A stretch of DNA of 64,000 nucleotides from Alphaproteobacteria bacterium (GTDB taxonomy: Bacteria; Pseudomonadota; Alphaproteobacteria; CAAHEQ01; UBA3637). Positions 11,425 to 64,000 of the stretch are shown piece after piece. A model generated the notes under the pieces. It made no database searches and was not told where the DNA came from. It saw only the letters and a program-made list of their open reading frames with translations. Numbering within the stretch: the first letter of the stretch is position 1; every line of letters begins with the position of its first letter. The stretch spans positions 28,290 through 92,289 of the forward strand of contig JAZLAQ010000030.1 in assembly GCA_045613285.1 (NCBI GenBank). Direction: 5' to 3'. Made by a program: the position numbers and the translations under genes.

Positions 11425-11428
11425 TTAC

Positions 11429-13014: not shown

Positions 13015-13184
13015 TTTTATATTTCCTTTCTTAATAATTATATTTTGTCATTTCTGACGAAATCGGACAAGTTTTAACATATTTTTTTAATCCTGTCCAG
13101 TATTTTTTTACTTTTTTCGTAAAAAAAGAAAAGATTTTATTAAATTTCAAATACTTATCTTTTCATTTTTTTACTTTAAAGTAA

Positions 13185-24977: not shown

Positions 24978-26375
<1,398 letters not shown>

Positions 26376-27416: not shown

Positions 27417-28306
27417 ATACTGTAATAACGCAAATTTCAGGCTACGATACAACAATATCGGTTTTACTTTCAATACTGTGTACCGTCGGATTATGCATCG
27501 GTTGTTGTTATTGGTTAAAAAGTAAAATGGGCCGCGGATTTGGTATTTTGTTGATTATTGCTTCATGGTGGGGAGCTTTCAGTTTAGATAATACGGCGAC
27601 AACAAACAATATTGATTTTGGAAATATGGATGCGATACCTATTTTTAGAATAGGAGATGTAACAATTGGATCAACATTATTTTTCTCGTGGGTTGTTATG
27701 GCAATTTTAGTGATTTGTTCTTGGTTTGTTACACGAAAGTTGAAAACAACTTTGCAGGTTTCTCATACACAGACTGCTCTTGAAATGATTGTTATGACAA
27801 TTCGCACTCAAATTAAAGATATCAGTGGTGATAACCCTGCCCGCTATATGCCAATTATGGGAACTTTCTTTTTATTTATCGGATTATCAAACCTTTTAAC
27901 AATTATTCCAGGTTTCCAAGCTCCAACAGCATCTTTATCCACGACTATGGCTTTCTCATTATGTGTCTTTTTCGCAATGCCTATATACGGTATTAAAAAT
28001 GCTGGTGTTTTAGGATACCTGAAAAAATATGTTGATCCGACACCGATTATGTTGCCTTTAAATATTTTAAGTGATTTTTCATCAACTTTTTCATTAGCCT
28101 TTCGGTTATATGGAAACATGTTGAGTGGTGTTATCATTGCAACGGTCTTGGTAATGTTAGCACCTTTATTGGTTCCACTGCCTTTACAAATTTTGGGACT
28201 AATAACCGGTATGATACAAGCATACATCTTTGCCTTACTGGCAATTGTTTATGTAACTTCTGTCGGACCGAAAAAACAATTCATAGACCATTTAAACTAT
28301 AATTAA
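27413..28306 (+). CDS. atpB: ATP synthase Fo subunit a (297 aa)
   Basis: Polytopic membrane protein with the conserved stator Arg motif (AFRLYGNMLSG) in the penultimate helix. Confidence 0.85.
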   Translation: MNTVITQISGYDTTISVLLSILCTVGLCIGCCYWLKSKMGRGFGILLIIASWWGAFSLDNTATTNNIDFGNMDAIPIFRIGDVTIGSTLFFSWVVMAILVICSWFVTRKLKTTLQVSHTQTALEMIVMTIRTQIKDISGDNPARYMPIMGTFFLFIGLSNLLTIIPGFQAPTASLSTTMAFSLCVFFAMPIYGIKNAGVLGYLKKYVDPTPIMLPLNILSDFSSTFSLAFRLYGNMLSGVIIATVLVMLAPLLVPLPLQILGLITGMIQAYIFALLAIVYVTSVGPKKQFIDHLNYN

Positions 28307-28322
28307 GAAAGGAAAAAAGATT

Positions 28323-28622
28323 ATGGATCCAATTACTTTTATCGGCGGAATGTCTGTTTTATCAGCTGGATTATGTATTGCTATCGGCGGTATCGGACCT
28401 GGATTAGGAGAAGGAAATGCTGCAGCAAATGCGTTACGTGCGATTGCACAACAACCGGATGAAGCTGGAAATATCACCAAAACCTTGTTTATGTCTATGG
28501 CAATGGTTGAATCAACAGCTATTTATGCTTTTATTGTTACAATGATGATTATGTTCTTTAATCCGTTTTGGACAAAAGCTGTTGAAATGGCTGGTCCTGC
28601 CGTACAGATGGTTACCCAATAA
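28323..28622 (+). CDS. atpE: ATP synthase Fo subunit c (99 aa). Hairpin with Glu in helix 1 (GLGEGN) and an ESTxxY motif in helix 2.
   Basis: GIGPGLGEG in helix 1, QQPDEAGN loop, MVESTAIYAFIV in helix 2. The alignment to Na+-binding c subunits (Q32/E65/S66/T67/Y70 spacing) is made from the sequence itself. Confidence 0.85.
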   Translation: MDPITFIGGMSVLSAGLCIAIGGIGPGLGEGNAAANALRAIAQQPDEAGNITKTLFMSMAMVESTAIYAFIVTMMIMFFNPFWTKAVEMAGPAVQMVTQ

Positions 28623-28636
28623 AAAGGAGTTCCCAA

Positions 28637-29410
28637 ATGGGATTTAGTTGGAGTACTTTTTTTGCTCAAATTATCAACCTGTTTATACTGGTCTGGTTGA
28701 TGAAGAAATTTCTATATCATCCGATAATTAATGTTATTACAAAAAGACAGGCTTACATCGAAAATAAGGTTAAAAAAGCCGATGAAGCCGTCAGTAATGC
28801 TAAAAAACAAGAAAAAAAACTGGTTGAACAGGCAAAAAAATGGGATAAAGAAAAACAAAAACGTTTAGACTCATTATCCGATGAAATTGCCAATCTGAAA
28901 AAAGAACAGGAAAATTTTGTTTATGAAGAAATTAATTCTTTACGTCAAAAAATGCAGAATGATTTAAATCGTGAAACGTCTTCTTTACAGTTGGAAATTC
29001 GCGATTTAATGATTAAGAATTTTTTGGAATTATCTCAAAAAGCCATCACTGACTTGTCAGAATTGGCCCCTATGGAACAAGCCTTCAGATTATTCCAAAG
29101 AAAATTTGATTCATTAAAAAAAGAAGGTATTTCATCTATTAAAAAATCCATTAAAAAACAAGAAATAATCAAAATATATTCATCTTCTTCTTTAAGAAAA
29201 AAAGAACAAGAAGATCTAATTGCTTTCATAGGGCAAAAACTAAAATTGAATTCAGAAATCAAGTTTCATTTTGAAGTAAATCCCGATTTGATTTTAGGGC
29301 TGGAAATGATTGTTGGTGAAATCGTTTTAGAATGGAATTTAAAAACTTATTTGGATAATTTTGAGGGAAATCTCAACACGGCCTTATCTAATTTAATTGT
29401 GGCCGATTAG
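28637..29410 (+). CDS. atpF: ATP synthase Fo subunit b, elongated form (257 aa)
   Basis: N-terminal single TM (FFAQIINLFILVWLM), a long charged coiled coil, and an extra ~100-aa C-terminal region. It is followed directly by alpha, 12 nt later, with no delta gene. Confidence 0.8.
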   Translation: MGFSWSTFFAQIINLFILVWLMKKFLYHPIINVITKRQAYIENKVKKADEAVSNAKKQEKKLVEQAKKWDKEKQKRLDSLSDEIANLKKEQENFVYEEINSLRQKMQNDLNRETSSLQLEIRDLMIKNFLELSQKAITDLSELAPMEQAFRLFQRKFDSLKKEGISSIKKSIKKQEIIKIYSSSSLRKKEQEDLIAFIGQKLKLNSEIKFHFEVNPDLILGLEMIVGEIVLEWNLKTYLDNFEGNLNTALSNLIVAD

Positions 29411-29422
29411 AAAGGAAAATAC

Positions 29423-30943
29423 ATGTTAAAAGGTGCATCAAAAGAAGCAACAAAAGTCATCAAGGAAGCTATATCCAAAACAAAAAATGATTTAAAGGTA
29501 TCTGAAGTTAGTACCATCCGTTCTATTTCCGCTGGCACGGCAGAGATATCTGGTCTTTCAAAAGTAAAAATGAACGAATTACTGACATTTCGTGGTGATA
29601 CTGTTGGTATGGTTCAAACTCTTTCTGTTGATAGTGTTGGTGTTGTTTTTCTTACAAATGCAGATCACCTAAAAGCCGGCGATCGTGCAAAACGCACACA
29701 TCAGGTTTTAAGCATTCCTGTTGGAGAAACCCTATTAGGTCGTGTTATCAATCCGTTAGGTCAACCTCTGGATAATAAGGGCATTATACCTACAACGGAA
29801 ACATTACCGGTAGAACAAGACTCGCCTCCGATTATGCATCGGGCACCTGTGGATACCCCCTTACAAACCGGATTAAAAGCTATAGATTCTTTTACCCCTA
29901 TCGGTCGGGGACAACGAGAGTTAATTTTAGGTGACAGACAAACTGGGAAAACAGCGATTGCCTTGGACACAATTATCAATCAAAAGGATACTGGTGTTAT
30001 CTGTATTTATTGTGCTATCGGACAAAGGGCTTCCGGTACGGCACGCGTTATTACGGATTTAGAAAAACATGGTGTTATGGATAATACCATCGTTGTTGTA
30101 GCTTCAGGTGATGACGAAGCCGGCTTACAATATATAGCCCCTTATGCTGCTACATCCATCGGGGAATGGTTTATGGCAAAAGGGAAAGATGTCTTAATTA
30201 TCTATGATGATTTAACTGCTCATGCACGGGCTTATCGTCAGATGTCTTTGTTATTACGGACACCACCTGGACGAGAAGCCTTCCCAGGAGATATTTTTTA
30301 CATACACTCTCGTTTATTGGAACGTTCTACACATTTGCGACCGGAATATGGTGGTGGTTCTTTAACTTCATTACCAATTGTTTCCACAGAAGCCGGTAAT
30401 ATATCTGCCTATATTCCGACAAATATTATTTCCATTACGGACGGACAGATTTACCTATCCACTTCCCTGTTCCAAAAAGGAATTATGCCGGCCATCGATA
30501 CGGGACGCTCTGTTTCCCGTGTCGGGGGTGATGCTCAATTACCGGCTTATCGTAATTTAGTTGGACCATTGAAATTGTTTTTCTCACAATTTGAGGAATT
30601 AGAATCTTTTGCAAAATTCGGAACTCAAATGGATGGAGAAACAGCCAAGCGGTTAAAACGGGGACGTGCTATACGTTCTGTTTTACAACAGATACAATAT
30701 GTCCCTATGCCGGTAGCTGAACAAATTTCCATCTTTTTAGCAACAAATGCCGGCTTATTAGATGATGTTAAGGAAAGTTTGATACCAAAAGCTCAAGAAA
30801 TTATTATTAAAACACTACATCAATCTTTTTCAGCTGAGATTAAAGCTATTTTAAAGAAAGAAAAATTATCACAAGAAGCAAAAGATAAGATGTTAGATGC
30901 CTTTCAAAAAGCACTTAATAACGAAAAAGGACTATATGTATAA
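29423..30943 (+). CDS. atpA: N-type ATPase alpha subunit (506 aa)
   Basis: Walker A GDRQTGKT and alpha-type nucleotide-binding domain motifs. Confidence 0.9.
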
Positions 30944-31833
30944 TGAGTTTAGAAGCCTTAAATAAACGGATAAAAACGACAACCGATTTACGGGATATTG
31001 TTAGTACAATGAAGATGTTATCGTCTGTCAGTATAGGTCCTTATGAAAAGGCTTTAATATCCTTAAACGAATACGGTAAAACAGTTAAGACAGCCTTTAT
31101 CGGTTTAATGAAAGATGATCGGTTTTATTATACACCCCAGCGATTAAAATCAAATTCCCCCAAAACAATCGCTATTGTTATCGGAACGGATAATGGTCTG
31201 GTCGGTCGCTTTAACCGAGATGTCATAACCTACGCCCGTAAAGATTTATCAGAAAATAGTCTAGATAAAGAAGTAACCTTTATTTGTATCGGGAAAAGAT
31301 TAGGACTGTTGGCTGATTCGGCAAAGGTAAAAGTAGCAGCAACTTACCCGATTATGAATTCTCTAAAAGAAATCACAACCATATCATCTATGGTTCTAAT
31401 GAAAATCAATGAACTGATACATGCAGAAAGGGCAGAACAGGTTTTTATTTACTATACAATAAAAAAAACCGGTGAATCACAACGGGTAGAAAAAGTACAA
31501 TTAATGCCCCTTCCCCAACAAGATATGATTTCCTTTAAAAAAGAAAAATGGACAGGACGTACTTTACCTCTTATTGCTGATGATAAAGGAAGTTTGTTTA
31601 CTGCTCTGATACATGAATATCTGACCGTTGTTTTAAGCGGTTCTTTGACATCTTCTCTGGCGGCTGAGCATTATACACGTATGGTCAACATGCAACAGGC
31701 AGAGAAAAATATAGATGAGTCCTTAGAAGCCATGAATATGGATTACCAACAAATTCGTCAAACCAGTATTACGGATGAACTGATTGATATCGTATCCGGT
31801 GCCGAAAGTCTGAAAAAGAAAAAATCAACTTAA
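30943..31833 (+). CDS. atpG: ATP synthase gamma subunit (296 aa)
   Basis: Typical gamma length. The N-terminal helix ([29 protein letters not shown]) and C-terminal helix are conserved. The start overlaps the atpA stop by 1 nt. Confidence 0.85.
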   Translation: MSLEALNKRIKTTTDLRDIVSTMKMLSSVSIGPYEKALISLNEYGKTVKTAFIGLMKDDRFYYTPQRLKSNSPKTIAIVIGTDNGLVGRFNRDVITYARKDLSENSLDKEVTFICIGKRLGLLADSAKVKVAATYPIMNSLKEITTISSMVLMKINELIHAERAEQVFIYYTIKKTGESQRVEKVQLMPLPQQDMISFKKEKWTGRTLPLIADDKGSLFTALIHEYLTVVLSGSLTSSLAAEHYTRMVNMQQAEKNIDESLEAMNMDYQQIRQTSITDELIDIVSGAESLKKKKST

Positions 31834-33503: not shown

Positions 33504-33538
33504 AAACACCATCGATTCTACTGATGGTGTTTTTTTTA
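33504..33538. terminator. Bidirectional terminator shared by the convergent Cys-rich and lipase-like genes
   Basis: CACCATC, 10-nt loop (gattctactg), GATGGTG, then T8. Confidence 0.55.
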
Positions 33539-34876
33539 TTGTTTTTGTCTTCTGTTTTGTTTTTTACGCAATGTTGTTTCGGCTACCTTGGACTTATGTT
33601 TTAACAGCGTCGGTTTTCTGTATAAAAACAATAATTTTTTCGGTGGATGTTCCAAATCCTTCGGTAAAGGAATAAAATGTCCGGACGCTTCATTTTCAAC
33701 AGAATTATTCATTGCATTGAATAGAATATACTTTCCCCAACGCAAAGCAATCTTTTGGGCCTGATTAGCCTGACTACAATAAGTGGAAATATGATGTGGC
33801 CCTTCTTTGGTATTATTTTCAAGTGTATTTATCAGTAAAACAGTCTGATTTTTTTGTTCAACGAAATGTGTTTTTAAAAGTCCCCTGTCATCCAAAGGCA
33901 CATCTGCCAATATCGGTCTTAAATATCCCATCATAAAATCATCTTTCGTATTAACCAAATGATAGGAACGGAAATTATTTTTATAATGTTCTTTATCTAA
34001 ATTCGGTGCAATATGTAAGGCCAAAACCTGATTCTGAATACGCTTGACTGTCTGTTTAGAAAAGCCTTTACGAAGCATATCTTTTGTCAGTAATTCAGCG
34101 ATAGCCTGAATAACACTTGATCCATAACTATAACCGATTAAATTCAACCGCCGAAAATTTTTCATCGCCTGCATAACCGGTATTTTTTTACCTTTTGCAT
34201 CTGAATAAAGCGGTCTTAAAAATCTTTCCACAAAATGTTTAATATAAAAAACAGGATGATCAATCGTACTATCTACCTTAAATCTATGAGAAGAAACATA
34301 GTCATTGTACAAATCCCTTTGATTTCCAGGATACCGAACCGATACGGTCTTAATTCCATATAAAGGAACATTATACATATCCATAGTTTTTCTGATTTTT
34401 CGAGCAAAGCCATTAATTAAAGACAATTCAAAATTACCTCGACCAGAAAAAAATAATACAATAGGCTTTTTCAATAGACTATCAGATTCTTTTTCAGGAA
34501 TAACCCTATAATCCAATTTAGTATCTTTATCCTCAGCCATTTGTTCAATAAAAGACATATATGCTGTTTTACCTAATTTTTCCCGGACATCCGATTCTTT
34601 CATACACGCATATAACAAACGTCTTAACGGACGATTGGAAATGCGTCCTTCAACCTGATACCCATCTAATAACTGACAAGGTAATTGTCCATACTTATCA
34701 GGAATACTTGCCAACTCTGGATGATGACTTAATAATATACGGGCATATCTAATCGGAATAGAAAAATTATTTTCTTCGTTTTTTATTAAACTTTGCAATA
34801 AATTATCGCCCTGTTTATCTTTAAATAAAAAATCGCCCTGTTCAATTTTTTTTATGATTTTAGAATATTCTAGCAT
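33536..34876 (-). CDS. Signal-less alpha/beta-hydrolase (lipase/esterase)-like protein, candidate secreted effector (446 aa)
   Basis: GxSxG nucleophile elbow LIGYSYGSSV preceded by an oxyanion-region-like PIVLFFSGRG. A ~140-aa non-catalytic N-terminal region and a basic C-terminal tail (RKKQNRRQKQ). No signal peptide. Confidence 0.5.
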   Translation of the reverse strand: MLEYSKIIKKIEQGDFLFKDKQGDNLLQSLIKNEENNFSIPIRYARILLSHHPELASIPDKYGQLPCQLLDGYQVEGRISNRPLRRLLYACMKESDVREKLGKTAYMSFIEQMAEDKDTKLDYRVIPEKESDSLLKKPIVLFFSGRGNFELSLINGFARKIRKTMDMYNVPLYGIKTVSVRYPGNQRDLYNDYVSSHRFKVDSTIDHPVFYIKHFVERFLRPLYSDAKGKKIPVMQAMKNFRRLNLIGYSYGSSVIQAIAELLTKDMLRKGFSKQTVKRIQNQVLALHIAPNLDKEHYKNNFRSYHLVNTKDDFMMGYLRPILADVPLDDRGLLKTHFVEQKNQTVLLINTLENNTKEGPHHISTYCSQANQAQKIALRWGKYILFNAMNNSVENEASGHFIPLPKDLEHPPKKLLFLYRKPTLLKHKSKVAETTLRKKQNRRQKQ

Positions 34877-45610: not shown

Positions 45611-46487
45611 AAAAATGAAACTGATACAAAAAGTTAAAGGATACTTTGAAAAACATCCAGAAGAAGATAAAGTTATTGAAACAATAGAAGAAATTATGGA
45701 TGAACGTGAAGAACGCGGGGATGATGTTCTGGTTGATCCGGATGAATTACTCTTGTTGAAAAATCTGTTTAAATTACGGGATATTCGAGCGGGACAAATT
45801 ATGATACCTCATATTGATATCATAGGTATTCCAACAACGGCAAATTTATCCGATGTGCGTGATATTGTTATACGGGATAAATTTACACGTCTGCCTGTCT
45901 ATGAAAAAACTCTAGACAACGTTGTCGGCATCGTCCATGTCAAAGATTTACTGTTAAAATTGTTTGAGATGGGAAAAGAGGTTACCGTTCAGGAAGTCAT
46001 GAGTAAATCTGTATTATTTGTACCGGAATCCATTCGGGTTTTAGATCTATTACATGATATGCAAACTAAAAGAACTCAAATGGCTATTGTTATCGATGAA
46101 TACGGTGGAACAGCCGGACTTATTACTTTGGAAGATTTATTGGAAGAAATCGTCGGTGAAATTGAAGATGAACATGATGCCTTGGACAGCCCCCCTATTT
46201 TACGGGAAATAAAGAAAAACCAATGGGATGCCGATGCCCGTATATCCTTAGAAGATTTAGAAAAGACAATCGGACAATTCCTGACACCCAACGAAAGAAC
46301 TTCTGATATTGATACTATTGGTGGTTTGGTATTCCAATTAGCTGGTCGTCTACCTAAACAAAATGAAGTTATTAAGCATTCTTCCGGATTAAAATTCAGA
46401 ATTACACAAGTTGATTCTAGATGTATTCGACAGGTTAAAATAACAAAAACATATACACCAAAGAAAACAAAGACCAAGAAAAATTAA
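45600..46487 (+). CDS. corC: CorC/YbeX-type CBS-pair plus CorC_HlyC domain protein (295 aa)
   Basis: Tandem CBS domains followed by a transporter-associated C-terminal domain. No DUF21 membrane domain. Lies downstream of ybeY. Confidence 0.8.
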   Translation: MWSKKMKLIQKVKGYFEKHPEEDKVIETIEEIMDEREERGDDVLVDPDELLLLKNLFKLRDIRAGQIMIPHIDIIGIPTTANLSDVRDIVIRDKFTRLPVYEKTLDNVVGIVHVKDLLLKLFEMGKEVTVQEVMSKSVLFVPESIRVLDLLHDMQTKRTQMAIVIDEYGGTAGLITLEDLLEEIVGEIEDEHDALDSPPILREIKKNQWDADARISLEDLEKTIGQFLTPNERTSDIDTIGGLVFQLAGRLPKQNEVIKHSSGLKFRITQVDSRCIRQVKITKTYTPKKTKTKKN

Positions 46488-47695
46488 AAGCCAAAACGCT
46501 TTTTGTCTGTTTTGTTATTCTTGTTCAAAGCTAATTTATCCAGAACATGTCCATACAATCTGATATAAAGAAGTTCGTTGGTATTTTCTATTTTTGGTTC
46601 AAATAAAACAGGATTATTTGCAACCGCTGCATTTAAATCTGTTTCTTCCTTTAATTCACATATTCTATCTGAACAGGAAGTATACATGACACTTAACTTC
46701 TGTCCTTCAGAGGAAACAGTATAATTAAATAAAAATGGTCGTTCTTTTGAAATATTAGAAACTGTTACAGAACCAGCTGTTAAAGAACAATTACCATCCA
46801 TACAATTAAACCGGATTGTCTGAGAATTGTTTAATTTCAAAAGAGAAACAGTCGGATTTGGGACAGAACTTTCTACATATTTAAAACCACCTGAAATAGT
46901 ATACGTTGTCGGACAAGAGGCATCACATAAAATATATTCTGAACCAATTAACGGTTCGCCAAAGTTGTCTATATGCCCGTTTCCTTTATTATTACTAACG
47001 GAATCCCAATGGTAAATAGGCGTATTAGCATACGGATAAGAATAGGGTGTCATACAGATTAAAACATTTCTGCTTGTGTCTGAATACCAGTTATCCAATT
47101 TTTCTGAAACAGACGGATAAATTATTCGCTTGCCGGTATCAAAATGTTTTGTAAATCCTGTATATTTTTGTCCGTTATTGATGGCATACGCCTGACCTGC
47201 ACCTGGGATAACATCTTCTAGAATACCACAGACAGTAGAACCATAAGAACGTTTTTGCATTGATCTGAGCCATGCACGTGAAGTATCTGGCCACCAATCT
47301 GGTTGATATCCTGTTGTTAATACATATTGATTATCAGTAGGACAAGAAGATATATTTTCACTTTCATCCAAACAAACCAGCGAGCTGATAAAACCATCAT
47401 CCGGTGTTGAGTTATCCGTTGAAATATCATGGAATCCCCCCTCTTCATTTCCTTTTAAATGAGGGGGTAGCATTTTCCACAGATTATCCGCATTAAAAGT
47501 GTGAAAATCTGCCCCTGACACATTCCAAGTTATCATCTGTTTCATATAATCTTTGGCAGCCTGATGTTGATTCAACAGTGTAACAATGTTTGTTTCCTCT
47601 CGATACATATCAATCTGATAAGAATCACTCCGAGGAAAAAACATATATGTCATAATACTTGCTATAAAAACCAATATACTTGCTAAATAAATCAT
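46484..47695 (-). CDS. Membrane-anchored, Cys-rich periplasmic protein of unknown function (403 aa)
   Basis: A single N-terminal TM (MIYLASILVFIASIMTYMFF), then a Ser/Thr/Asn/Cys-rich domain with several Cys pairs. Monocistronic, convergent with corC and divergent from chrA. Confidence 0.45.
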   Translation of the reverse strand: MIYLASILVFIASIMTYMFFPRSDSYQIDMYREETNIVTLLNQHQAAKDYMKQMITWNVSGADFHTFNADNLWKMLPPHLKGNEEGGFHDISTDNSTPDDGFISSLVCLDESENISSCPTDNQYVLTTGYQPDWWPDTSRAWLRSMQKRSYGSTVCGILEDVIPGAGQAYAINNGQKYTGFTKHFDTGKRIIYPSVSEKLDNWYSDTSRNVLICMTPYSYPYANTPIYHWDSVSNNKGNGHIDNFGEPLIGSEYILCDASCPTTYTISGGFKYVESSVPNPTVSLLKLNNSQTIRFNCMDGNCSLTAGSVTVSNISKERPFLFNYTVSSEGQKLSVMYTSCSDRICELKEETDLNAAVANNPVLFEPKIENTNELLYIRLYGHVLDKLALNKNNKTDKKRFGF

Positions 47696-47780
47696 ATAAA
47701 ACTCCTTTTTTCCTATTTTAAGTTGATTTTATTCCAAAAATCAAGTAAAAAATACTATGAATTTAATTTTAAGGAAAAAA

Positions 47781-48317
47781 ATGTTATTACGTCTCTTTTT
47801 ATCTTTTTTCAAAATTGGTCTATTTGCCTTTGGTGGTGGCTATGTTATAGTCGGTCTGGCAGAAAGAGAATTGGTTCAGAAAAATAAATGGCTGACAAAA
47901 CAGGAGCTGTTTGATTTTTTAACACTCAGTCAAACCTTACCTGGTCTGATATCCGTCAACTTAGCACTTTTTTTAGGAAATAAAATAAGGGGATTTTGGG
48001 GCGGTATTTGCGCTGTTTTCGGTATGGTTTTTCCTGCCTTTGTTGCTATTATTTTGTTGGCTTCTTTTATTAATAAAGCCGAACAATTTCCAGTGATAAG
48101 CCACGCAATGACGGGTATAAAAATCGCCGTATGTGTTTTAATTTTAAATGTTGCCTGCGGACAAATAAAACAATCCGTTAAAAGCAAAAAAACAGCGTGT
48201 ATCGGTATTATTACCTGTTTATGGATTTTATTTCAATTACCAACAGCCTTTCCTTTAATTTCTGGTTGTATATTTGGTTGGATATATTATAAAAAGGAAA
48301 AGGAGGTTTTAAAATGA
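47781..48317 (+). CDS. chrA: Chromate transporter ChrA, short-chain N-terminal-half homolog. The likely start is at 47781.
   Basis: FGGGY signature (LFAFGGGYV). An AAGGA SD lies 5 nt upstream of the ATG at 47781. About 5 TM helices. Confidence 0.75.
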   Translation: MLLRLFLSFFKIGLFAFGGGYVIVGLAERELVQKNKWLTKQELFDFLTLSQTLPGLISVNLALFLGNKIRGFWGGICAVFGMVFPAFVAIILLASFINKAEQFPVISHAMTGIKIAVCVLILNVACGQIKQSVKSKKTACIGIITCLWILFQLPTAFPLISGCIFGWIYYKKEKEVLK

Positions 48318-48853
48318 ATTTATTACAGTTATTCGGGCAATTTATTTATATCGGTGTTTTGGCCTTTGGCGGTGGAATGGCAGTTATTCCTTTTTTACAC
48401 GAATTAGTCAATCGTTCCCCAATCATCACACAACAAGACTTAAGTAATGTTATCGCTTTATCCCAAATGACCCCTGGGGCTATTGGAGTCAATATGGCAA
48501 CTTATACCGGTTATATATTGGGTGGTTTTACCGGTAGCTTTCTTGCCACTTTTGCTTTGATATTACCATCTATTGTTATCATCAGTCTTGTCAGCCATTA
48601 TTGGCAGAATAAAAAAGAAAATCCGATTTTTAACTCTATTTTTAACGGAGCAAAAGCCAGCGTTGCCGGCTTGTTAATAAGTACTTTTTTCTTCTTGTTT
48701 TATGCTTTATTTCAAGCAGAAAAAAACATAACAACTAACTTTAAAATTATCGGATTATTTTTAGTTCTATCACTGATTGTATTCAAATACAAACCCAGTC
48801 CCATGCTTTATATTCTGGGGATGGGCTTTATCGGAATTTTATTTCAGTTATAA
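48314..48853 (+). CDS. chrA: Chromate transporter ChrA, short-chain C-terminal-half homolog (179 aa)
   Basis: Second FGGG signature (LAFGGGMAV). 4-nt ATGA overlap with the preceding half. A paired short-chain CHR arrangement. Confidence 0.75.
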   Translation: MNLLQLFGQFIYIGVLAFGGGMAVIPFLHELVNRSPIITQQDLSNVIALSQMTPGAIGVNMATYTGYILGGFTGSFLATFALILPSIVIISLVSHYWQNKKENPIFNSIFNGAKASVAGLLISTFFFLFYALFQAEKNITTNFKIIGLFLVLSLIVFKYKPSPMLYILGMGFIGILFQL

Positions 48854-49312
48854 TTATCGTTCTTTACTCCATTTTTTTAAATATTTATAGAAACATGCTC
48901 TATCTTTGGCATGGGCCAACTTTCTATCAATAAAGCCATTATAATCCCGTCGTAAAGCAATGGGACCAAAATCTGGAATTTCAATATCCACACTTTCACC
49001 GACCTTAATATTCCGAAGTGCTGGATCAAAACATTTTTTATTGATGAATTTATGTAAAGAACGTTCTATCAAACAAAAATTGGATAACCTATTTTTCCCA
49101 CCGCCGGACAAAGGAACAATATGATGCACATCAAAACCATGTGGAACCCTTCCTTTGGATGCACGGGTCAAATTAAAAATATCGGCATACTTATCCAAGT
49201 ATCCTTTCCGGTATAGCCAACGAACAAAAACCTGATTCAGTTTTTTTCGAGTAAATTCCTTTCTTAATGCCTTAGTTACTTCCGGTGGTTGTAGTGTAAA
49301 ATGAACGACCAT
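48854..49312 (-). CDS. HNH/EndoVII-superfamily small nuclease (152 aa)
   Basis: HH...N...H motif (FDVHHIVPLSGGGKNRLSNFCLIERSLHKF). The start is 2 nt downstream of the recG stop. Confidence 0.55.
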   Translation of the reverse strand: MVVHFTLQPPEVTKALRKEFTRKKLNQVFVRWLYRKGYLDKYADIFNLTRASKGRVPHGFDVHHIVPLSGGGKNRLSNFCLIERSLHKFINKKCFDPALRNIKVGESVDIEIPDFGPIALRRDYNGFIDRKLAHAKDRACFYKYLKKWSKER

Positions 49313-51401: not shown

Positions 51402-51854
51402 TTATTTTTTCTTTTTAATCTGATTAAACTTCCCTTTTTGAACATTTTGCTGAACAACTGGGCGTTTTGGTTTTAAATAACTGCCGTCATACATTTTTAC
51501 AGAACCATCCGCATAAACAACAGATTTAAAAACAGGCAAATTCCTGAACGATTCTAAAACCGTTCCACAACCTAACTGAGGATTATTCTTTTGTTCATTA
51601 TATGCATTAAACTTAGATGTTGCATATTGACGATAACCTTCTTCCTCTTCTTCTTTTGTTAAAGCCTTGTTGGCAATAATCCGACTGGCAATCAATTCAA
51701 AATCATCCAGTTGAGCCCCGGCATTACAGGCCAATGCCGTTCCGCCGGTAATTCCCAGCTGTTCCGCCTCTGTCAAACCGTTTGCCGTACGAGATGCTGC
51801 CTGAACACCACAGACCAACATCATTAAACTACAAAAAAATATTACTTGTTTCAT
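51402..51854 (-). CDS. Secreted protein of unknown function (150 aa)
   Basis: Signal peptide (MKQVIFFCSLMMLVCGVQA), an acidic EEEEE stretch and a basic C-terminus. Ends 4 nt before the recG start. Confidence 0.45.
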   Translation of the reverse strand: MKQVIFFCSLMMLVCGVQAASRTANGLTEAEQLGITGGTALACNAGAQLDDFELIASRIIANKALTKEEEEEGYRQYATSKFNAYNEQKNNPQLGCGTVLESFRNLPVFKSVVYADGSVKMYDGSYLKPKRPVVQQNVQKGKFNQIKKKK

Positions 51855-57667: not shown

Positions 57668-57706
57668 AAATAGCCCGCCAAAAACAATTCTCGGCGGGCT
57701 ATATTT
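57668..57706. terminator. Bidirectional terminator between rnr and the parvulin gene
   Basis: TAGCCCGCC, 13-nt loop, GGCGGGCTA. A perfect 9-bp GC-rich stem. Confidence 0.6.
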
Positions 57707-57726: not shown

Positions 57727-58689
57727 TTATAAAGCCGTCTTTTTAATTTGGACTTTCATTTTTGACCGTTCTTCTGTCAAAACATTTTCCAAATTCCGTT
57801 CCATAACAACTTGTCTTAAATCATTTTTAACTTCTTCAAAGGATAACGGTTTAGACATACGGACATCATCTACCTGAACAATATGCCATCCGAAAGGTGT
57901 CTTAATCGGTTCGGAAATCTGTCCTTTTTTCATTTTAAATACGACCTTCCCAAATTCCGGAACCATCATATCTTCGGTAAAGTATCCCAAATCACCGTCC
58001 ATTGCAGATTTATCCAAAGAATATTTGCCAGCCAGCATTTCAAAAGAATCACCTGCTTTTAATTTTGTTACCACATCACGGGCTTCTTTTTCAGTTTTAA
58101 CTAAGATATGTTTAGCACGAACCTCTGGAACAGGCTTGTAATTTGCAACCTCAGCATCATACATTTCCTGTAATTCATCTTCAGATACACTATCTTTTAA
58201 TTGTCTATCTAAATAACTCTGTGCCATAATCTGTTCCTGTGCAAAACGGATTGCATTTTGGACACTTTGTAATCTACCCATATTTGCTTTATCAGCAGCC
58301 ATTCTTAACATACGAACATTAATAAAAGCATCTAACACCTGCGGATAGACCATTTCAAAGGGAACTTCCGATAGACTGGGAATTGTATCAACATACTGTT
58401 TAACTTCCTCTAAATAAATTGGAGTTCCATCAATTACTGCTACTATTTCGCTTTTATTCTCATCGGAGGGAGTATATCTGATATAGCAGAAGTTTTCATT
58501 AACTGCTAATGTCATAAACATTCGACCGACAATAAACCAAATAAGTAAAGCAACCACAAACAAAATAAACGATATAACCGGATAATTTTCCGGTACACGT
58601 ATATTCTTTTCTGGAGAAGGCTTCTCTTGTTTTAGGGTTGAAATTTCTTTTTTATTTGTCTTTTTTACAATTTTCTTTTTAACTGTCAT
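57727..58689 (-). CDS. Membrane-anchored parvulin-type peptidyl-prolyl isomerase (PpiD/SurA-like, 320 aa)
   Basis: N-terminal TM (YPVISFILFVVALLIWFIV), a chaperone-like region and a C-terminal PpiC domain (FGWHIVQV). Confidence 0.7.
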   Translation of the reverse strand: MTVKKKIVKKTNKKEISTLKQEKPSPEKNIRVPENYPVISFILFVVALLIWFIVGRMFMTLAVNENFCYIRYTPSDENKSEIVAVIDGTPIYLEEVKQYVDTIPSLSEVPFEMVYPQVLDAFINVRMLRMAADKANMGRLQSVQNAIRFAQEQIMAQSYLDRQLKDSVSEDELQEMYDAEVANYKPVPEVRAKHILVKTEKEARDVVTKLKAGDSFEMLAGKYSLDKSAMDGDLGYFTEDMMVPEFGKVVFKMKKGQISEPIKTPFGWHIVQVDDVRMSKPLSFEEVKNDLRQVVMERNLENVLTEERSKMKVQIKKTAL

Positions 58690-58752: not shown

Positions 58753-59175
58753 TTATATTTTTTTAATTTGTTCCAATCTCAAGCGTTTTGATAACTCACC
58801 AATAAACCCAAATGCCAAAGTGGGATGTAATGCCATCATGCGGTATAACTGTTCCCCACTAACACGTAAAAATGTTGTTTGCGTCTGTGCCATTATCTGA
58901 TACGGTAATATAGCCGGACTCATTACCGTTGTATCTCCAAAAACCTGACGTGCCCCATATTCGGCAATCAATTCATTATTACTATCCAAGATATGAACAT
59001 TTCCAGACAATATCATATAAAGATATCTGTTTTCTTTTCCCAGTTCAGAAATAACCTCACCAGCTTTTACCGTTTGTTCTTCACAAACCGATATTAAATC
59101 CGATAAAGCCAGTTCAGAAGCATCCGAAAAAAAAGGAATATTTTTTAGAACCAATACTTTTTCAAAAGTAATCAT
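58753..59175 (-). CDS. Stand-alone cyclic-nucleotide-binding domain protein (140 aa, no DNA-binding domain)
   Basis: cNMP-binding beta-roll motifs (GEVISELGKEN, FGDTTV, RxA-like RQVFGD). Starts 9 nt after the upstream 920-aa gene. Confidence 0.65.
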   Translation of the reverse strand: MITFEKVLVLKNIPFFSDASELALSDLISVCEEQTVKAGEVISELGKENRYLYMILSGNVHILDSNNELIAEYGARQVFGDTTVMSPAILPYQIMAQTQTTFLRVSGEQLYRMMALHPTLAFGFIGELSKRLRLEQIKKI

Positions 59176-59184
59176 TTTTTCCTC

Positions 59185-61947
59185 CTAACTATCTAAAATT
59201 TTATCTAATGAAATACGGGATAACTGCGTCGTAGGTATTGTCAAAAGTTTTTGATGTAAAACTTCCTTATCAGGTTGCAAACGAACCAATGTCCAAATAG
59301 CAGCCTCTAAAACATCAGGATTTTTATCAGATAAAGCAACTTCTGCAATCGGTACTCCTTGATTCATACCTAATCTTCGTAAAACATATAAGGCCGTAGA
59401 ACGAATCCAATGATTAACAGCATGTTTGGGATTGACAATTATTTCAGAAATCCCTTTAACTGCATCATCTGCCGTCAGCCCGATATATTTTTCACAAGGT
59501 TTAGGTGCTAACGGTAACAGTAAAACCGGCCGTATCCGACGATACAAATGGAACGGTAAAATATCCTGTATCATTCCCAAAGCTGGTGAATATAGATCAT
59601 ATTCATCCGTTAACAAAATATGAACAGCACGAACAAACATCTTTTGATTGCTCATCAAAAGTAAACGATAAAGTATCAATTTTCGAGTATCATCAATATC
59701 TTCTTGTAAAGCCTGTCGCAAAAAATAAAAAGCTTCTTCCGATTCATGGGTTGGGGCATGACGAAACTTATCTTGCAACTCTAACAACCAATAAATTCTC
59801 TCAACATCCTCTTTCAGATAAGTCAATAAAGAAGAATATCTATCCCGATGGGTCCATATAATTCCTGTTTCAATAATTGTTTGAATGATTGTTTTTTTCA
59901 ACTTTTGATTCTCAACCGATAATGCCCGTAATAAAATCAGATGCCCCTCCCCTTTGGACTGACTTCCCAAGAAAAGGGCTATCTGTTTCCGACGCAGTGT
60001 ATCTATGTCTGGTCTGGTCAACATTTTTTCTAATGCCGGAAATGCTACTTTACCATAATCGGATAAAGCCTTTAAAGCACTTTCCTGTAAAGACACATCA
60101 TCCAACGATAAAAAGACAGCATTCAATAATTCAGGAGCCCGTAACCGACCCGCCGTAATCAATGCACTTTGAACAACTTTTACATCCGAATGTTTTAATA
60201 AAGTAGATACAAAAGGAATAAACGCCACATCAGGACATTCTTTTATAATAGAAAGTGCGTTTATGTTATCTTGTATTTTTTTAGATTCCACCAAACTTCG
60301 TAAAGGTTCTACAACAGATAAAATATAATCTCCTTTTAATTTTAAATACCCAGCAATTGCTCCGGCTGATAGATCACTATCTTTCAAGTATGATAAGTAT
60401 TTTTGAGGATTATCGGTTGTCAAAATCATATTTTGTAAAATTTCAATTTTAACTGCTGTTTCTTTTTCTTTTTTTATTAATTTTTGAAAAAATAAATGAT
60501 ATGTCCTAAAGCGGTAACTATCACGAATTTTTTGACAAGAAAAGACCCTAACCTCTGTCAAAGGATGTTTCATACACTGTAATAAACTTTCTTCATAAAA
60601 CGGATGATTTGCTGTTTCTAATATTCTTAAAGCGTAAATAACATCATCTTTATTTTCTTTTTTTAACAATCTCTTAATATACGATAATAAACGGGGATAT
60701 GAAATTATTATCGGCCCTCTTCTAAAAATACGCATTTCAAACATACGTAATAAAATCTGGGCATACAAATTAGCGGTATAGATTGTCTCTATGATTAAAA
60801 GAATTCCTATCCCAATTAAAATATACGGAAAGAAAAACGGTTTCAGATTCATACATAATATACTCACAAGTACAAAACCAAGTGGTATAGAAACTGAATT
60901 TATTTTTTTCTGAATAGGACTACAACTAACATCACAAGATAAAACACGCGGTAAAATATTTAAGTAGCCACTTAAATAAAAATGAGACAATAAAAAAAAC
61001 ATCAAAGCACCTGTTGCTATTGGTCCGCTGTGTGCACCAAACGCATTAAAACCAGTAGCAATAACACTTAGCCCCAGCAATATCATACCGGCCAACGTCG
61101 TATATATATATCTTGTATGATAAAGAACAGATACCATAACTAATCCCAAAACTCCAAGCAATCCCCAAATAAGTCCCAAAACAACAATAGGAGAAATACC
61201 AGTTTCACTAAACTTTAAATACAAAGTTGCTTCAATTAAAAGTTTTGAAATTATACCTAAAAATGAAAGGAACAAAATATTCAATATCAACGGTCGTTCA
61301 TATGTATCACAATATCCGGCAGTTATTTTTGCAAATACTTTTTTTGTTATCGGTGATATTATCGTTAATATTTTAAATACTAAGGTCATTCCTCCGATTA
61401 TAAACGAGGAAATATTCAAATATGTAACGGATTCAAAATCAACAAAAACAGAAATAAAACCCGCTATCATAAAACCAACCAGATCTAAACAAAATAAAGT
61501 CAAAAACTTCAATGATGAAAAGTTCATCTTTACAAAGCGACTGGCAATAGACCAAAAAACAGTTGTCAAAACAAAATAGAATAAATATTTTAATATAAAA
61601 ATTATATCTAATATAAACTTATTTTTAGACTGATCCCATACAAATAAAGACAAAACAGACAACAAAAAACAACCGGCAAGTATCCAAGGACTCCCATACC
61701 CCTTATTACGTTGGATTTTCCATAAAAATAGACCGCTAAAAAACAATAGAATAGCCGTAGATAAAAAATCAAAACCAATATGAAATAGTCTATTATTTTC
61801 AATCAAAAGAGCAACTGAACCTATATCCCAAAAAACGATGGCGCATGATTTAAAAATAACGCCAAAAGCCAAAAGGATTAAAATTCGAATTTTAAACCCT
61901 GACAACTCTGACAACTTGTCCCAAAAAGAATGCCATTTTTTTATCAT
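59185..61947 (-). CDS. Fusion protein (920 aa): an N-terminal ~430-aa polytopic (~11-12 TM) transporter-like domain plus a C-terminal ~480-aa HEAT/ARM-like alpha-helical repeat domain. Possibly related to TLC-type nucleotide-transporter fusions.
   Basis: Hydrophobicity pattern of residues 1-430. The C-terminal half is rich in ~40-aa helical repeats (VRVFSCQ..., DVKVVQSALITAGRL, NPDVLEAAIWTLVRL). 4-nt overlap with ftsY. Confidence 0.5.
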   Translation of the reverse strand: MIKKWHSFWDKLSELSGFKIRILILLAFGVIFKSCAIVFWDIGSVALLIENNRLFHIGFDFLSTAILLFFSGLFLWKIQRNKGYGSPWILAGCFLLSVLSLFVWDQSKNKFILDIIFILKYLFYFVLTTVFWSIASRFVKMNFSSLKFLTLFCLDLVGFMIAGFISVFVDFESVTYLNISSFIIGGMTLVFKILTIISPITKKVFAKITAGYCDTYERPLILNILFLSFLGIISKLLIEATLYLKFSETGISPIVVLGLIWGLLGVLGLVMVSVLYHTRYIYTTLAGMILLGLSVIATGFNAFGAHSGPIATGALMFFLLSHFYLSGYLNILPRVLSCDVSCSPIQKKINSVSIPLGFVLVSILCMNLKPFFFPYILIGIGILLIIETIYTANLYAQILLRMFEMRIFRRGPIIISYPRLLSYIKRLLKKENKDDVIYALRILETANHPFYEESLLQCMKHPLTEVRVFSCQKIRDSYRFRTYHLFFQKLIKKEKETAVKIEILQNMILTTDNPQKYLSYLKDSDLSAGAIAGYLKLKGDYILSVVEPLRSLVESKKIQDNINALSIIKECPDVAFIPFVSTLLKHSDVKVVQSALITAGRLRAPELLNAVFLSLDDVSLQESALKALSDYGKVAFPALEKMLTRPDIDTLRRKQIALFLGSQSKGEGHLILLRALSVENQKLKKTIIQTIIETGIIWTHRDRYSSLLTYLKEDVERIYWLLELQDKFRHAPTHESEEAFYFLRQALQEDIDDTRKLILYRLLLMSNQKMFVRAVHILLTDEYDLYSPALGMIQDILPFHLYRRIRPVLLLPLAPKPCEKYIGLTADDAVKGISEIIVNPKHAVNHWIRSTALYVLRRLGMNQGVPIAEVALSDKNPDVLEAAIWTLVRLQPDKEVLHQKLLTIPTTQLSRISLDKILDS

Positions 61948-62828
61948 TCTGACACCCCTAATAAAGAATGTACATAGTCTTCTGCAGAAAAAGATCTTAA
62001 ATCATCAACATTTTCACCGATTCCTAAAGCATAAACAGGTAACTTAAATTGCTGGGCCAATGCAATTAAAATTCCACCTTTAGCCGTACCATCTAATTTT
62101 GTCATAATCAACCCCGATATACCGACAATTTCTTGAAAAGTTTTAACCTGCATTAAAGCGTTTTGCCCAACAGTTGCATCCAAAACCAAAATTGTTTCGT
62201 GTGGTGCATCAGGCATTTGTTTTTTTATAACTTTGTTTATTTTTTTCAATTCATCCATTAAATCAGAACGGTTTTGTAAGCGTCCGGCCGTATCAATAAA
62301 AATTATATCATCTCCGGCTTGCTGACTTTGTTTTAACGCATCAAAAATAAGACCGGCAGAATCAGTCCCTGACTGACCGGCATATAATTTACAGCCTAAT
62401 TTATTTGCCCAACGTTCAAGTTGTTCTTTCGCACCAGCACGAAATGTATCACCTGCGACAAATGAAATTTGATACCCTTGTTCCTGATAAAACTGTCCCA
62501 ATTTCCCAATTGTTGTTGTTTTACCTGCACCATTTACTCCTATCATCAATACAACGAACGGTTTTTGATTTGTGTCAATTTTTAACTTTTGTGCCACCGG
62601 TGCTACCTTATCAACCAAAATATCAGCCAATTTCTGACATAATTCTTCCCCGCTTTTTAGTTTACATCGACGTAGCGTGTCCATAATTTCAGAGGTTGTA
62701 GTATATCCCACATCCGAGCATAAAAGTGCTTCTTCCATTTGTTCCAAGCCGACTTCATCAACACGACTAAATGAAAATAAAGAAGCTGTCTTAGATAACC
62801 CTTTTTTCAGTTTAGATAACCAACTCAT
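61944..62828 (-). CDS. ftsY: Signal recognition particle receptor FtsY, short NG-domain-only form (294 aa)
   Basis: GTPase motifs GVNGAGKTTT, DTAGR and TKLD, and an N-domain helical bundle. Confidence 0.9.
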   Translation of the reverse strand: MSWLSKLKKGLSKTASLFSFSRVDEVGLEQMEEALLCSDVGYTTTSEIMDTLRRCKLKSGEELCQKLADILVDKVAPVAQKLKIDTNQKPFVVLMIGVNGAGKTTTIGKLGQFYQEQGYQISFVAGDTFRAGAKEQLERWANKLGCKLYAGQSGTDSAGLIFDALKQSQQAGDDIIFIDTAGRLQNRSDLMDELKKINKVIKKQMPDAPHETILVLDATVGQNALMQVKTFQEIVGISGLIMTKLDGTAKGGILIALAQQFKLPVYALGIGENVDDLRSFSAEDYVHSLLGVSE

Positions 62829-64000
62829 CTTTTACCTTTCCTTTTATAATTGCCTGAATAAACGTATTTGAGGGTACTTTTTTATCAACACGAACCGGCA
62901 GATAATTCTCTGTAAAACCCATACCATTTTGTTCTACTAAAATAGATACTCTTTCTCCGATCATTTTGTCAAGCCATTTATTTTTTATTTTTTGTCCTAA
63001 CAATCTTGCTCTGGCTGCTCGTTCTGTTCTGTCAGACTTAAGAACCATCGGCATTTTTGCTGCCGGTGTACCTTCTCGTGCAGAATACGGAAAAACATGC
63101 GTATGTGTAATATTAGCGCTTTCAATCAAATCCAAAGTTCTTTGAAATTGTTCCTCTGTTTCGGTTGGAAAACCAGCTATTAAATCCGCACCCAATGTTG
63201 ATAACGGATTTACCTGACGTAATTTTTCAGAGAAAGAAACAACATCTTCAAAAGTATGACGACGTGCCATCCGTTTTAAAATCAAATTATCACCAGCCTG
63301 AACCGATAAATGAACAGACGGCATCAACACCGGATATTTTGCAAGTAATTCTAGAAATGAATCACCAATACCGGCTGGATCCAACGACCCAAAACGCAAC
63401 CGTTTCAAACCATCCACTTCCGTCAATAAACGTTCTGTCAGTTCCCATAATCCAAACGGATACGATGCTACATCAACCCCTGTTAAAACGATTTCTTGGA
63501 ATCCGTTCATAATAAAGGTACGCGCCTGCTCTATCACTTTATCTGGAGGCAAACCAATATTTTTTCCCCTTAATGTACGGACAATACAAAAAGTACAGGC
63601 ATTATCACATCCCTGTTGTATCTGTAAAAACGCCCTATCCCGTTGTTCAAAATCCGTAATTAAAGGAATATCAAAAAAAGGTTCCGATAAATCACCTACA
63701 GATACCCTATCCTTACCCAACAAGATCTCCTTCGTAATTTTTTCCTTATTACCCAAAACGCGATAAACTTCCGGCATACTGGCAAAAACTTCAGGATGCA
63801 TTTGCGCAGCACAACCGGCTACTATAATTTTTTTATCCGGATTTTCACGTGCTGTTTGACGAACTGCCTGTCTGCATTGGCGTTCAGCTTCACCCGTTAC
63901 AGCACAGGTATGTATTAAAATAATATCATTCAAATCATCACCAGCCAACTGCTTCATGACAGCGGTTTCAAAAGTATTTAGACGACAGCCAAAAGTAATA
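62812..64000 (-). CDS. mtaB: MiaB-family radical-SAM methylthiotransferase, MtaB-like. The N-terminus lies beyond the window end, and the ORF track under-calls the start at 63957.
   Basis: My translation of 63958-63999 gives ITFGCRLNTFETAV in frame with MKQLAGDD... This is the conserved MTTase N-domain start (T.GC..N..ES). Radical-SAM motif GCDNACTFCIV and a C-terminal TRAM-like domain. Confidence 0.8.
   Translation of the reverse strand, partial: ITFGCRLNTFETAVMKQLAGDDLNDIILIHTCAVTGEAERQCRQAVRQTARENPDKKIIVAGCAAQMHPEVFASMPEVYRVLGNKEKITKEILLGKDRVSVGDLSEPFFDIPLITDFEQRDRAFLQIQQGCDNACTFCIVRTLRGKNIGLPPDKVIEQARTFIMNGFQEIVLTGVDVASYPFGLWELTERLLTEVDGLKRLRFGSLDPAGIGDSFLELLAKYPVLMPSVHLSVQAGDNLILKRMARRHTFEDVVSFSEKLRQVNPLSTLGADLIAGFPTETEEQFQRTLDLIESANITHTHVFPYSAREGTPAAKMPMVLKSDRTERAARARLLGQKIKNKWLDKMIGERVSILVEQNGMGFTENYLPVRVDKKVPSNTFIQAIIKGKVKDELVI

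Follow-up and report, generated by a model that had tools for sequence, protein, structure and literature searches.

A putative ftsY-linked branch of the NTT-HEAT proteins and its stand-alone cyclic-nucleotide-binding-fold partner in an alphaproteobacterial contig

The 64,000-nucleotide stretch analysed here (the window; positions 28,290 to 92,289 of contig JAZLAQ010000030.1 from an Alphaproteobacteria bacterium) encodes on its minus strand, directly after the gene for the signal recognition particle (SRP) receptor FtsY, a 920-aa protein in which a 12-helix membrane domain is fused to a HEAT-like solenoid, followed by a separate 140-aa protein with the cyclic-nucleotide-binding (CNB) fold. The architecture and folds of these two proteins, their homology, their synteny and the changes at their key residues were established in this study. 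The reading that was considered the most probable is that the pair constitutes a permease-solenoid with a CNB-fold regulatory subunit that would modulate transport, and that its ligand and substrate have diverged from cAMP/cGMP and ATP/ADP, respectively. An NTT-HEAT protein accompanied by a separate downstream CNB domain (cNBD) gene is an architecture that has already been published (PMC5381601). The apparently new element is a divergent subfamily linked to ftsY, whose named hosts are alphaproteobacterial and in which hallmark residues of both partners are gone.

Architecture and family of the 920-aa protein

An AlphaFold2 (AF2) model of the full-length 920-aa protein, built on an 18-sequence alignment, had a pLDDT of 82.9 and placed 12 long transmembrane (TM) helices within residues 17-409, six on each side of a disordered central loop (residues 198-214); an earlier note on this DNA had read ~11-12 TM helices in the first ~430 residues, in good agreement with the model. 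Residues 418-919 formed a solenoid of ~29 shorter helices. This soluble part contained 15.8% leucine and was matched by the Pfam models HEAT_2 (47.7 bits, 1.9e-12) and HEAT (1.4e-6), as expected from the leucine-rich, HEAT-like repeats that the same note had described, and its structural matches were karyopherin-beta2, CAND1 and designed alphaRep proteins. The top structural matches of the TM domain were all MFS carriers, with Foldseek TM-scores of 0.6-0.7. Since lysine and arginine residues numbered 16 in the predicted cytoplasmic loops of the TM domain and 4 in its other loops, both termini and the solenoid are predicted to be cytoplasmic.

The fusion of a transporter-like domain to HEAT repeats was confirmed by comparison with other genomes. 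Seventeen homologues of 756-928 aa were identified, with 40-54% identity to the 920-aa query and E-values down to 0; at least 97% of the query was covered in 16 of them and 80% in the truncated 756-aa homologue. The full-length architecture recurred in the 17 close homologues and again in dozens of more remote proteins, and residues R406, W408, G411 and P412 at the TM/HEAT junction were invariant or nearly so in the 18-sequence alignment. A missed stop codon, which had been suspected near residues 430-450, or a frameshift was ruled out by this conservation of the junction in all homologues. The alternative proposal of a peptidoglycan or lipid flippase-like membrane module fared no better: a MurJ/Wzx (MOP) flippase was ruled out by the presence of 12 TM helices, not the 14-TM MOP fold, together with the MFS structural matches and the absence of a Pfam match. 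A sensor-kinase-like domain was ruled out in that the Pfam scan revealed no kinase or other output domain. The only point in favour of an artefact, a flippase or a sensor was the missing Pfam match for the TM domain, and these explanations were regarded as refuted.

Source records give the full-length homologues no name beyond "HEAT repeat domain-containing protein" and "hypothetical protein". In one sheep-rumen metagenome-assembled genome (MAG; JAFYHG010000008.1, locus L011, 6169-6193) the NTT-HEAT gene was found in two tblastn pieces that overlapped at query residues 735-742; the protein called there (P0017, 756 aa) reflects a frameshift, either an assembly error or a pseudogene.

The TM domain escaped direct classification. 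The 920-aa protein gave no TLC match at E<=1, and the 13 TM domains of the close family (its own and those of 12 relatives) matched neither Pfam TLC nor MFS_1 nor any other Pfam model, even at an E-value of 10 (the curated threshold of TLC, PF03219, is 21 bits, which was not reached). No transporter model in an NCBIfam scan matched the 920-aa protein, and when PDB sequences were searched with A2 alone, the close-family profile that represents the TM domain by itself (residues 1-430), no solved NTT or other structure was matched. The first clue to its family was a weak full-length match to a 1089-aa Anaerolineae protein with TLC, MFS_1, HEAT and C-terminal cNMP_binding domains; in the BLASTP alignment, query residues 349-891 were collinear with 378-923 of this Anaerolineae sequence (E 4e-21). 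When A2 was searched against 1.84 billion representative proteins, 132 were recovered, of which the full-length matches were nearly all of ~750-1290 aa and covered the whole profile, the rest being short fragments. The distant matches P0072, P0076, P0080, P0099 and P0121 (E 1.8e-10 to 1.6e-5) all passed the Pfam TLC threshold and carried HEAT_2, with or without cNMP_binding. Comparison of A2 with 21 such TM domains, mostly TLC-positive, by hhalign gave a probability of 99.55% (E 2.4e-23, 423 columns), and the combined profile A3 matched the solved AtNTT1/chloroplast ADP/ATP carrier 9j3j (E 2.3e-10) and 9j3n (1.3e-6). These two structures are reportedly those of Lin et al. (Nature, 2025).

Because A2 reached TLC-positive proteins in the search and in hhalign, and because A3 linked the domain to solved NTTs, the TM domain was assigned to the NTT lineage, in which it would be a very divergent member attached to the NTT-HEAT group, by transitive and not by direct membership. 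The suggestion in the earlier note of a TLC relative therefore held as distant homology detected by profiles, although not as a direct match to the TLC or MFS_1 hidden Markov models (HMMs). Gradients in the search scores pointed to a long branch that joins the NTT-HEAT group. Identity between the window TM domain and those of NTT-HEAT outgroups was 13-17%, from which the identity to canonical NTTs was judged to be in the low teens at most.

NTT-HEAT fusions have been described as a single, broadly distributed bacterial clade in which the cNBD gene in some cases follows "at a distance of several nucleotides", triple fusions of NTT, HEAT and cNBD are known, HEAT/cNBD fusions and fissions occurred repeatedly, and all members, the Chlamydia trachomatis one included, are functionally uncharacterised (Major et al. 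2017, Genome Biol Evol 9:480, PMC5381601). In literature searches, no work on the function of any member came to light. The window pair resembled the published systems in that an N-terminal NTT-type 12-TM domain and a C-terminal HEAT domain occupy one polypeptide, and in that a cNBD, which in the clade may be fused or have its own gene a few nucleotides further on, is present as a stand-alone 140-aa counterpart of the fused domain; collinear homology extended over TM12 plus HEAT and over the TM domain. It differed in that its TM domain fell below Pfam TLC detection, its RQGKRLFG loop motif was degraded, its partner cNBD lacked the cassette arginine, and the pair was fixed directly downstream of mtaB-ftsY. 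Since the subfamily-typical motifs TRYIYTT, LWRGG and WRGGP were absent from the sequence file of PMC5381601, the ftsY-linked branch was probably not sampled in that study.

Canonical sequences taken from the supplement of Major et al. (C. trachomatis NTT1 and NTT2, Simkania NTT1 and a cyanobacterial NTT-HEAT protein) were aligned to A3, and all 12 helices were collinear. The 920-aa protein shared with canonical NTTs (AtNTT1, Chlamydia Npt1/Npt2, Rickettsia Tlc; PF03219, TC 2.A.12) the 12-TM MFS-type fold, FW in TM4, an acidic residue in TM7, R-[FY] in loop 8-9 (R-Y in the window) and P-L...P-[LI]-G around TM10-11 (P-L...P-L-G in the window), and it also retained an amphipathic helix before TM7. 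Unlike the canonical proteins it had no direct HMM match and carried a HEAT domain and a cNBD partner, both of which they lack. Its host, as far as the window shows, does not live as an obligate intracellular parasite.

Four charged residues of AtNTT1, namely K155, E245, E385 and K527, are reportedly important for ATP/ADP transport, according to Trentmann et al. 2000 (the numbering is offset by one in Q39002). K155 corresponded to F61 in the window protein and to Tyr in NTT-HEAT proteins, and K527 to L329/N330 and to Phe-Arg, respectively. E385 was kept as E239, where NTT-HEAT proteins carry Asp. At E245 the window protein had no acidic residue, with the invariant K120 nearby, and the alignment was ambiguous both there and in the NTT-HEAT proteins. 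Three of these four positions were thus not conserved. The TM4-5 loop motif decayed stepwise, from EAKRFYxLFG in canonical NTTs through RQGKRLFGL in NTT-HEAT proteins to SSLKFLTLF in the window. Other charges were maintained within the membrane: lysines K33 (TM1) and K120 (TM4) were invariant, and D41, D60 and E239 (TM7) were conserved. Such conserved intramembrane charges would be expected of a carrier that is still working. They do not identify its substrate; K33, K120 and the retained E239 point only weakly to a charged, possibly anionic, small molecule.

The CNB-fold partner and conservation of the gene pair

The 140-aa protein was matched by Pfam cNMP_binding (PF00027) with 46 bits (cutoff 27.5), and its AF2 model had a pLDDT of 93.3, the chain ending with the C-helix at residues 118-139. 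Foldseek aligned the model with the CNB domains of GlxR and Mycobacterium tuberculosis CRP (E 5e-12, TM-score 0.82-0.84), and a profile of the protein matched PKG, PKA-R, CRP/FNR, SthK and MlotiK1 (E 2e-11 to 1e-25). Like the known CNB sensors (CRP/GlxR, PKA/PKG, MlotiK1/SthK/HCN; TM-score 0.75-0.84) it consisted of an eight-stranded beta-roll with flanking helices; unlike them it stopped after the C-helix, with no helix-turn-helix (HTH), kinase or channel domain. No HTH DNA-binding domain was detected by Pfam, and the protein spanned only the first ~130-135 positions of the NCBIfam CRP (214) and FtrB (236) models. A CRP-type transcription factor was ruled out by the absence of an HTH. MAG records call the 133-140-aa CNB-only homologues P0175, P0202, P0227 and P0234 "Crp/Fnr family transcriptional regulator"; this label is a misnomer for CNB-only proteins, because their chain ends with the C-helix and there is no DNA-binding domain. 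End to end, the 140-aa protein aligned with the C-terminal cNBD of the triple fusions, with which it had an N-terminal T-x-EKV-x-[IV]LK motif in common.

The phosphate-binding cassette departed from the canonical form. In alignments with E. coli CRP, fused cNBDs and Plasmodium PKG, the window protein carried Gly-Asp for Gly-Glu and Leu90-Pro-Tyr for the Arg-[ST]-Ala of canonical sensors; its cassette reads FGDTTVMSPAILPYQ, compared with FGE[LM]A-LD-EPR-[STLI]-A in the fused domains, and the HMMER alignment to Plasmodium PKG gave the same Arg to Leu mapping. The Glu, which is Asp in the window, was kept in 84% of the family. The position of the cassette arginine (R82 of CRP) was Leu in the window and in 83% of 116 close homologues; it was Leu in locus L001, Ile in L017, and Ala, Ala or Ser, with Asp as the next residue, in the distant ftsY-linked loci L002, L013 and L015. 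In contrast, Arg was present in the stand-alone cNBDs of the outgroup loci L016, L018 and L019; among 25 fused cNBD domains, at least 20 retained it. Because the replacement motif G-E-T-T-V-x-S-P-A was 84-100% conserved, position by position, the pocket of the 140-aa family appears still to be under selection, but not for classical cyclic-phosphate binding. The 140-aa gene was also the best conserved of the block: identity to the window in close relatives was 75-79%, compared with ~72% for MtaB, ~64% for FtsY and ~50% each for the PPIase described below and NTT-HEAT, which indicates strong purifying selection on the cNBD gene.

The proposal that a cyclic-nucleotide sensor lies next to the 920-aa gene was therefore upheld for the fold. 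The gating by cyclic nucleotides that it implied was not supported, since the cassette arginine is Leu in the window and is absent throughout the subfamily. The arginine-less protein is presumably closer to members of the fold that do not bind cyclic nucleoside monophosphates (cNMPs), such as the CNBHDs of KCNH/EAG channels and heme- or other-ligand CRP/FNR sensors, than to true cNMP receptors.

Five genes, identified with an open reading frame (ORF) finder, were packed tightly as one minus-strand unit (Table 1), comprising mtaB, ftsY, the 920-aa ORF, the 140-aa ORF and a gene for a peptidyl-prolyl isomerase (PPIase). The stop codon of ftsY was shared with the start of the 920-aa gene in an ATGA overlap, and the 920-aa and 140-aa genes were separated by a 9-nt gap, with the AGGAGG of the second gene overlapping the TAG stop of the first, 5 nt ahead of ATG. 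Overlaps or gaps of 9 nt or less had been reported for the whole run from mtaB to the 140-aa ORF; this was correct for ftsY and the two genes that follow it, but the overlap of mtaB and ftsY, as listed by the ORF finder, was 17 nt. The PPIase gene, preceded by an AAGGAG of its own, lies 63 nt beyond the 140-aa gene. Translational coupling is suggested by the ATGA overlap and the 9-nt junction; together with the single downstream terminator, the junctions indicate that the 920-aa and 140-aa proteins are probably translated from one mRNA.

Table 1. Features of the ftsY-linked gene block (positions in the window)
Feature	Positions	Strand	Basis
mtaB-like radical-SAM methylthiotransferase gene, first in block	62812-63957	-	Pfam Radical_SAM and UPF0004
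ftsY, SRP receptor	61944-62828	-	Pfam SRP54 (238 bits) and SRP54_N
920-aa ORF	59185-61947	-	ORF finder; Pfam HEAT_2 and HEAT
Residues 1-410 of the 920-aa protein: predicted 12-TM MFS-fold, NTT/TLC-related permease domain, N-in/C-in	60718-61947	-	
Residues 418-920 of the 920-aa protein: predicted cytoplasmic alpha-solenoid, ~14 HEAT-like helix pairs	59188-60696	-	Pfam and AF2
AGGAGG Shine-Dalgarno sequence of the 140-aa gene	59181-59186	-	Sequence read directly
Gene for the 140-aa stand-alone CNB-fold protein	58753-59175	-	Pfam cNMP_binding (46 bits)
Degenerate phosphate-binding cassette, residues 79-96 of the 140-aa protein, FGDTTVMSPAILPYQIMA	58888-58941	-	Alignments
Gene for a 320-aa membrane-anchored parvulin-type PPIase (PrsA/PpiD/SurA-like)	57727-58689	-	Pfam Rotamase_3, Rotamase_2 and Rotamase; NCBIfam PrsA-like
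Intrinsic-terminator-like hairpin (15-bp stem, 7 G-C pairs, T-rich tail) closing the unit	57670-57702	-	

To compare gene order, 12 related loci (L001-L012) were analysed by tblastn, and L002, L013, L015 and L017 represented the distant members of the subfamily. The mtaB gene was 52-74% identical and syntenic across L001-L012. The NTT-HEAT gene was located directly after mtaB-ftsY in the window and in 15 loci, down to ~20% identity, and the order mtaB-ftsY-NTT-HEAT-cNBD-PPIase was seen in all 10 close loci that were long enough to judge. In the four distant loci the first four genes kept their order and the PPIase gene was absent; identity of NTT-HEAT fell to ~20%, whereas FtsY and MtaB stayed above 50% (compared with L002, 20.5% for the TM domain and 53% for FtsY). 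The cNBD gene was directly downstream of NTT-HEAT in the window, in 14 subfamily loci (all of those with downstream sequence) and in three of three unfused outgroup loci, so that the co-occurrence of the two genes, which the earlier note had put forward as a check, was observed in every locus examined.

The species-representative genomes with 10 of the related loci were all MAGs of uncultured Alphaproteobacteria or Pseudomonadota. The subfamily host was alphaproteobacterial wherever the source record names the organism, one record giving only Pseudomonadota, and the named sources were human gut (Nepal, Hadza), roe-deer abomasum and sheep rumen.

The NTT-HEAT outgroup loci L014, L016, L018 and L019 had no ftsY neighbour. 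In L016 (protein P0062) a gene for a HAMP plus class III adenylate/guanylate cyclase protein was located at 5459-7309, ~670 nt downstream of the pair of NTT-HEAT and 140-aa cNBD genes. This neighbour, and a cNBD with the cassette arginine, may reflect a genuine cNMP link in outgroup members, unlike the arginine-less ftsY-linked subfamily. In L018 a STAS gene was found upstream of the NTT-HEAT/cNBD pair, and in L019 a second MFS-HEAT gene, encoding 760 aa, followed directly after it (7524-9806). Two convergent TLC-HEAT-cNBD triple fusions in L014, from an Anaerolineae MAG (5001-8270 and 10054-13270), flanked a 587-aa gene without a Pfam match. In L014 and L019, NTT-HEAT genes of other phyla were accordingly seen as paralogues side by side.

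Possible function of the module

In the favoured reading, the 920-aa protein would be a permease of the inner membrane that has 12 helices in an MFS fold and belongs to the NTT (TLC, ATP/ADP-translocase) lineage. Its last TM helix runs straight into a cytoplasmic solenoid of ~500 residues. The solenoid would dock the 140-aa CNB-fold protein as a stoichiometric subunit, and this ligand-sensing or regulatory subunit may, by way of the solenoid, bias the permease's alternating-access cycle. A complex of the two proteins is most likely because in other phyla the solenoid ends in a covalently attached version of this small domain (a Rosetta stone relationship); fusion and fission, together with the coupling of the genes, point to both complex formation and regulation. 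Since the cassette arginine and most of the canonical NTT charged residues have been lost, the 140-aa protein probably has a ligand other than classically bound cAMP or cGMP, and the substrate of the 920-aa protein is probably not exchanged ATP/ADP.

Several considerations weigh against this reading. Membership of the NTT lineage rests on transitive profile evidence, with Pfam TLC, MFS_1 and NCBIfam models all failing. At 13-17% identity the alignment is uncertain around E245, where canonical NTTs carry an insertion. In addition, the whole NTT-HEAT clade already departs from canonical NTTs at several of these positions, and the losses are therefore not all specific to the subfamily. Finally, loss of the cassette arginine would lower the affinity for cNMPs and does not strictly exclude their binding.

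The straightforward interpretation of an NTT-HEAT-cNBD system, which is that of Major et al. 2017 and of the earlier note, would be a functional system for the import or exchange of nucleotides (ATP/ADP, another NTP or NAD) that is gated by cAMP/cGMP through the 140-aa protein. This interpretation was considered unlikely. It would be consistent with the NTT-lineage homology of the TM domain, the retention of E385 as E239, of the P-L/P-L-G skeleton and of the R-Y motif in the TM8-9 loop, the cassette Gly-Glu in 84% of the family and the HAMP-cyclase gene in the outgroup locus. However, no TLC model was matched even at an E-value of 10, the equivalents of K155, E245 and K527 were not conserved, the EAKRFY/RQGKRLFG motif had decayed to SSLKF, and the cassette arginine had gone from the whole ftsY-linked subfamily although it was present in outgroups. 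The lineage is also one of gut and rumen MAGs, which are not known intracellular parasites, and genes for glycolysis, fatty-acid synthesis and an ATPase were present in the window alone.

The gene content of the window also bears on the suggestion that a nucleotide transporter would fit an energy-scavenging lifestyle. Genes were identified for cell shape and wall synthesis (PBP2, MreC, MreB), central and lipid metabolism (PGK, FabF, FabG, AccC and an ADP-forming acetyl-CoA synthetase), translation (AspRS, TyrRS), DNA and RNA processing (UvrD, RecG, RNase R) and ion transport and energy (TrkH, CorA and the complete N-type ATPase operon described below). Nothing in the window suggests an energy parasite; its repertoire appears to be that of ordinary free-living housekeeping. 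Energy parasitism was rejected on this free-living repertoire and on the absence of a canonical NTT signature, and the energy-scavenging transporter was likewise not borne out, given the lack of a TLC match and the three of four canonical charges that were not conserved.

A second alternative is that the 920-aa protein does not transport at all, and is a membrane-anchored scaffold or transceptor whose solenoid and CNB subunit act in membrane-protein or envelope biogenesis with FtsY and the PPIase. The invariant position directly after ftsY across the subfamily, down to ~20% identity, argues for such a role, as do the ATGA overlap of the ftsY stop with the 920-aa start and the PrsA/PpiD-like PPIase that comes next in all close relatives. 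Compared with its neighbours, the TM domain is evolving far more quickly (20.5% identity against 53% for FtsY in L002), and it has lost canonical substrate residues, which would also be consistent with a scaffold. This explanation was nevertheless thought improbable, in view of strongly conserved intramembrane charges and loop motifs that are typical of active MFS carriers, the absence of the PPIase from the distant L002, L013, L015 and L017, and outgroup NTT-HEAT pairs without an ftsY neighbour. Furthermore, the mtaB-ftsY pair may, on our assumption, be an ancestral alphaproteobacterial gene pair, in which case the linkage to ftsY may be just inherited gene order.

A third possibility, to which only a low probability was given, is a neofunctionalised module with neither nucleotide transport nor cNMP sensing, in which the complex would sense or move some other metabolite together with the SRP receptor (and the PPIase in close relatives) in membrane-protein or envelope homeostasis.

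Other features of the window and significance for the NTT-HEAT family

Elsewhere in the window, a complete N-ATPase-type operon was located at 24987-31833 on the plus strand, with its genes in the order typical of this type: beta, epsilon, AtpQ (ATPase_gene1), AtpR (PF12966), a, c, a b/delta-like subunit, alpha and gamma; no standard F-type atp operon was visible within the 64-kb window. A split ChrA-type chromate-transporter pair, consisting of half-size genes of 186 and 179 aa with a 4-nt overlap, was found at 47757-48853 (plus strand). Four minus-strand ORFs of 150-446 aa lacked Pfam matches, those at 33536-34876 and 46484-47695 at E<=0.01 and those at 48854-49312 and 51402-51854 at E<=1e-5. 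In an Rfam search over positions 1-64000 no family reached the gathering score, and hence no tRNA, riboswitch or other catalogued RNA was detected.

The present case extends a published architecture only modestly, and its value lies mainly in the comparative handle that it offers on NTT-HEAT-cNBD function. Proteins of the NTT-HEAT(-cNBD) type are widespread, occurring in cyanobacteria, Chlamydiaceae, many other bacteria and oomycetes. The present branch also exposes a gap in annotation, since the Pfam TLC, MFS_1 and NCBIfam models all miss its TM domain. If the neofunctionalised module proved to be the true one, it would be the first functional handle on the NTT-HEAT family, including its members in Chlamydia trachomatis, cyanobacteria and oomycetes. 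The ftsY-linked subfamily may be viewed as a natural "experiment", in which, compared with outgroup members, the cassette arginine has been lost and the RQGKRLFG motif has decayed, and from which most canonical nucleotide-binding charges are missing, some of them across NTT-HEAT proteins in general, yet the architecture and the gene coupling have remained under strong selection. Because the three-part architecture has been kept under selection despite the loss of hallmark residues, the subfamily suggests that the conserved core function is the coupling of permease, solenoid and CNB domain itself, and not cAMP-gated ATP/ADP exchange.

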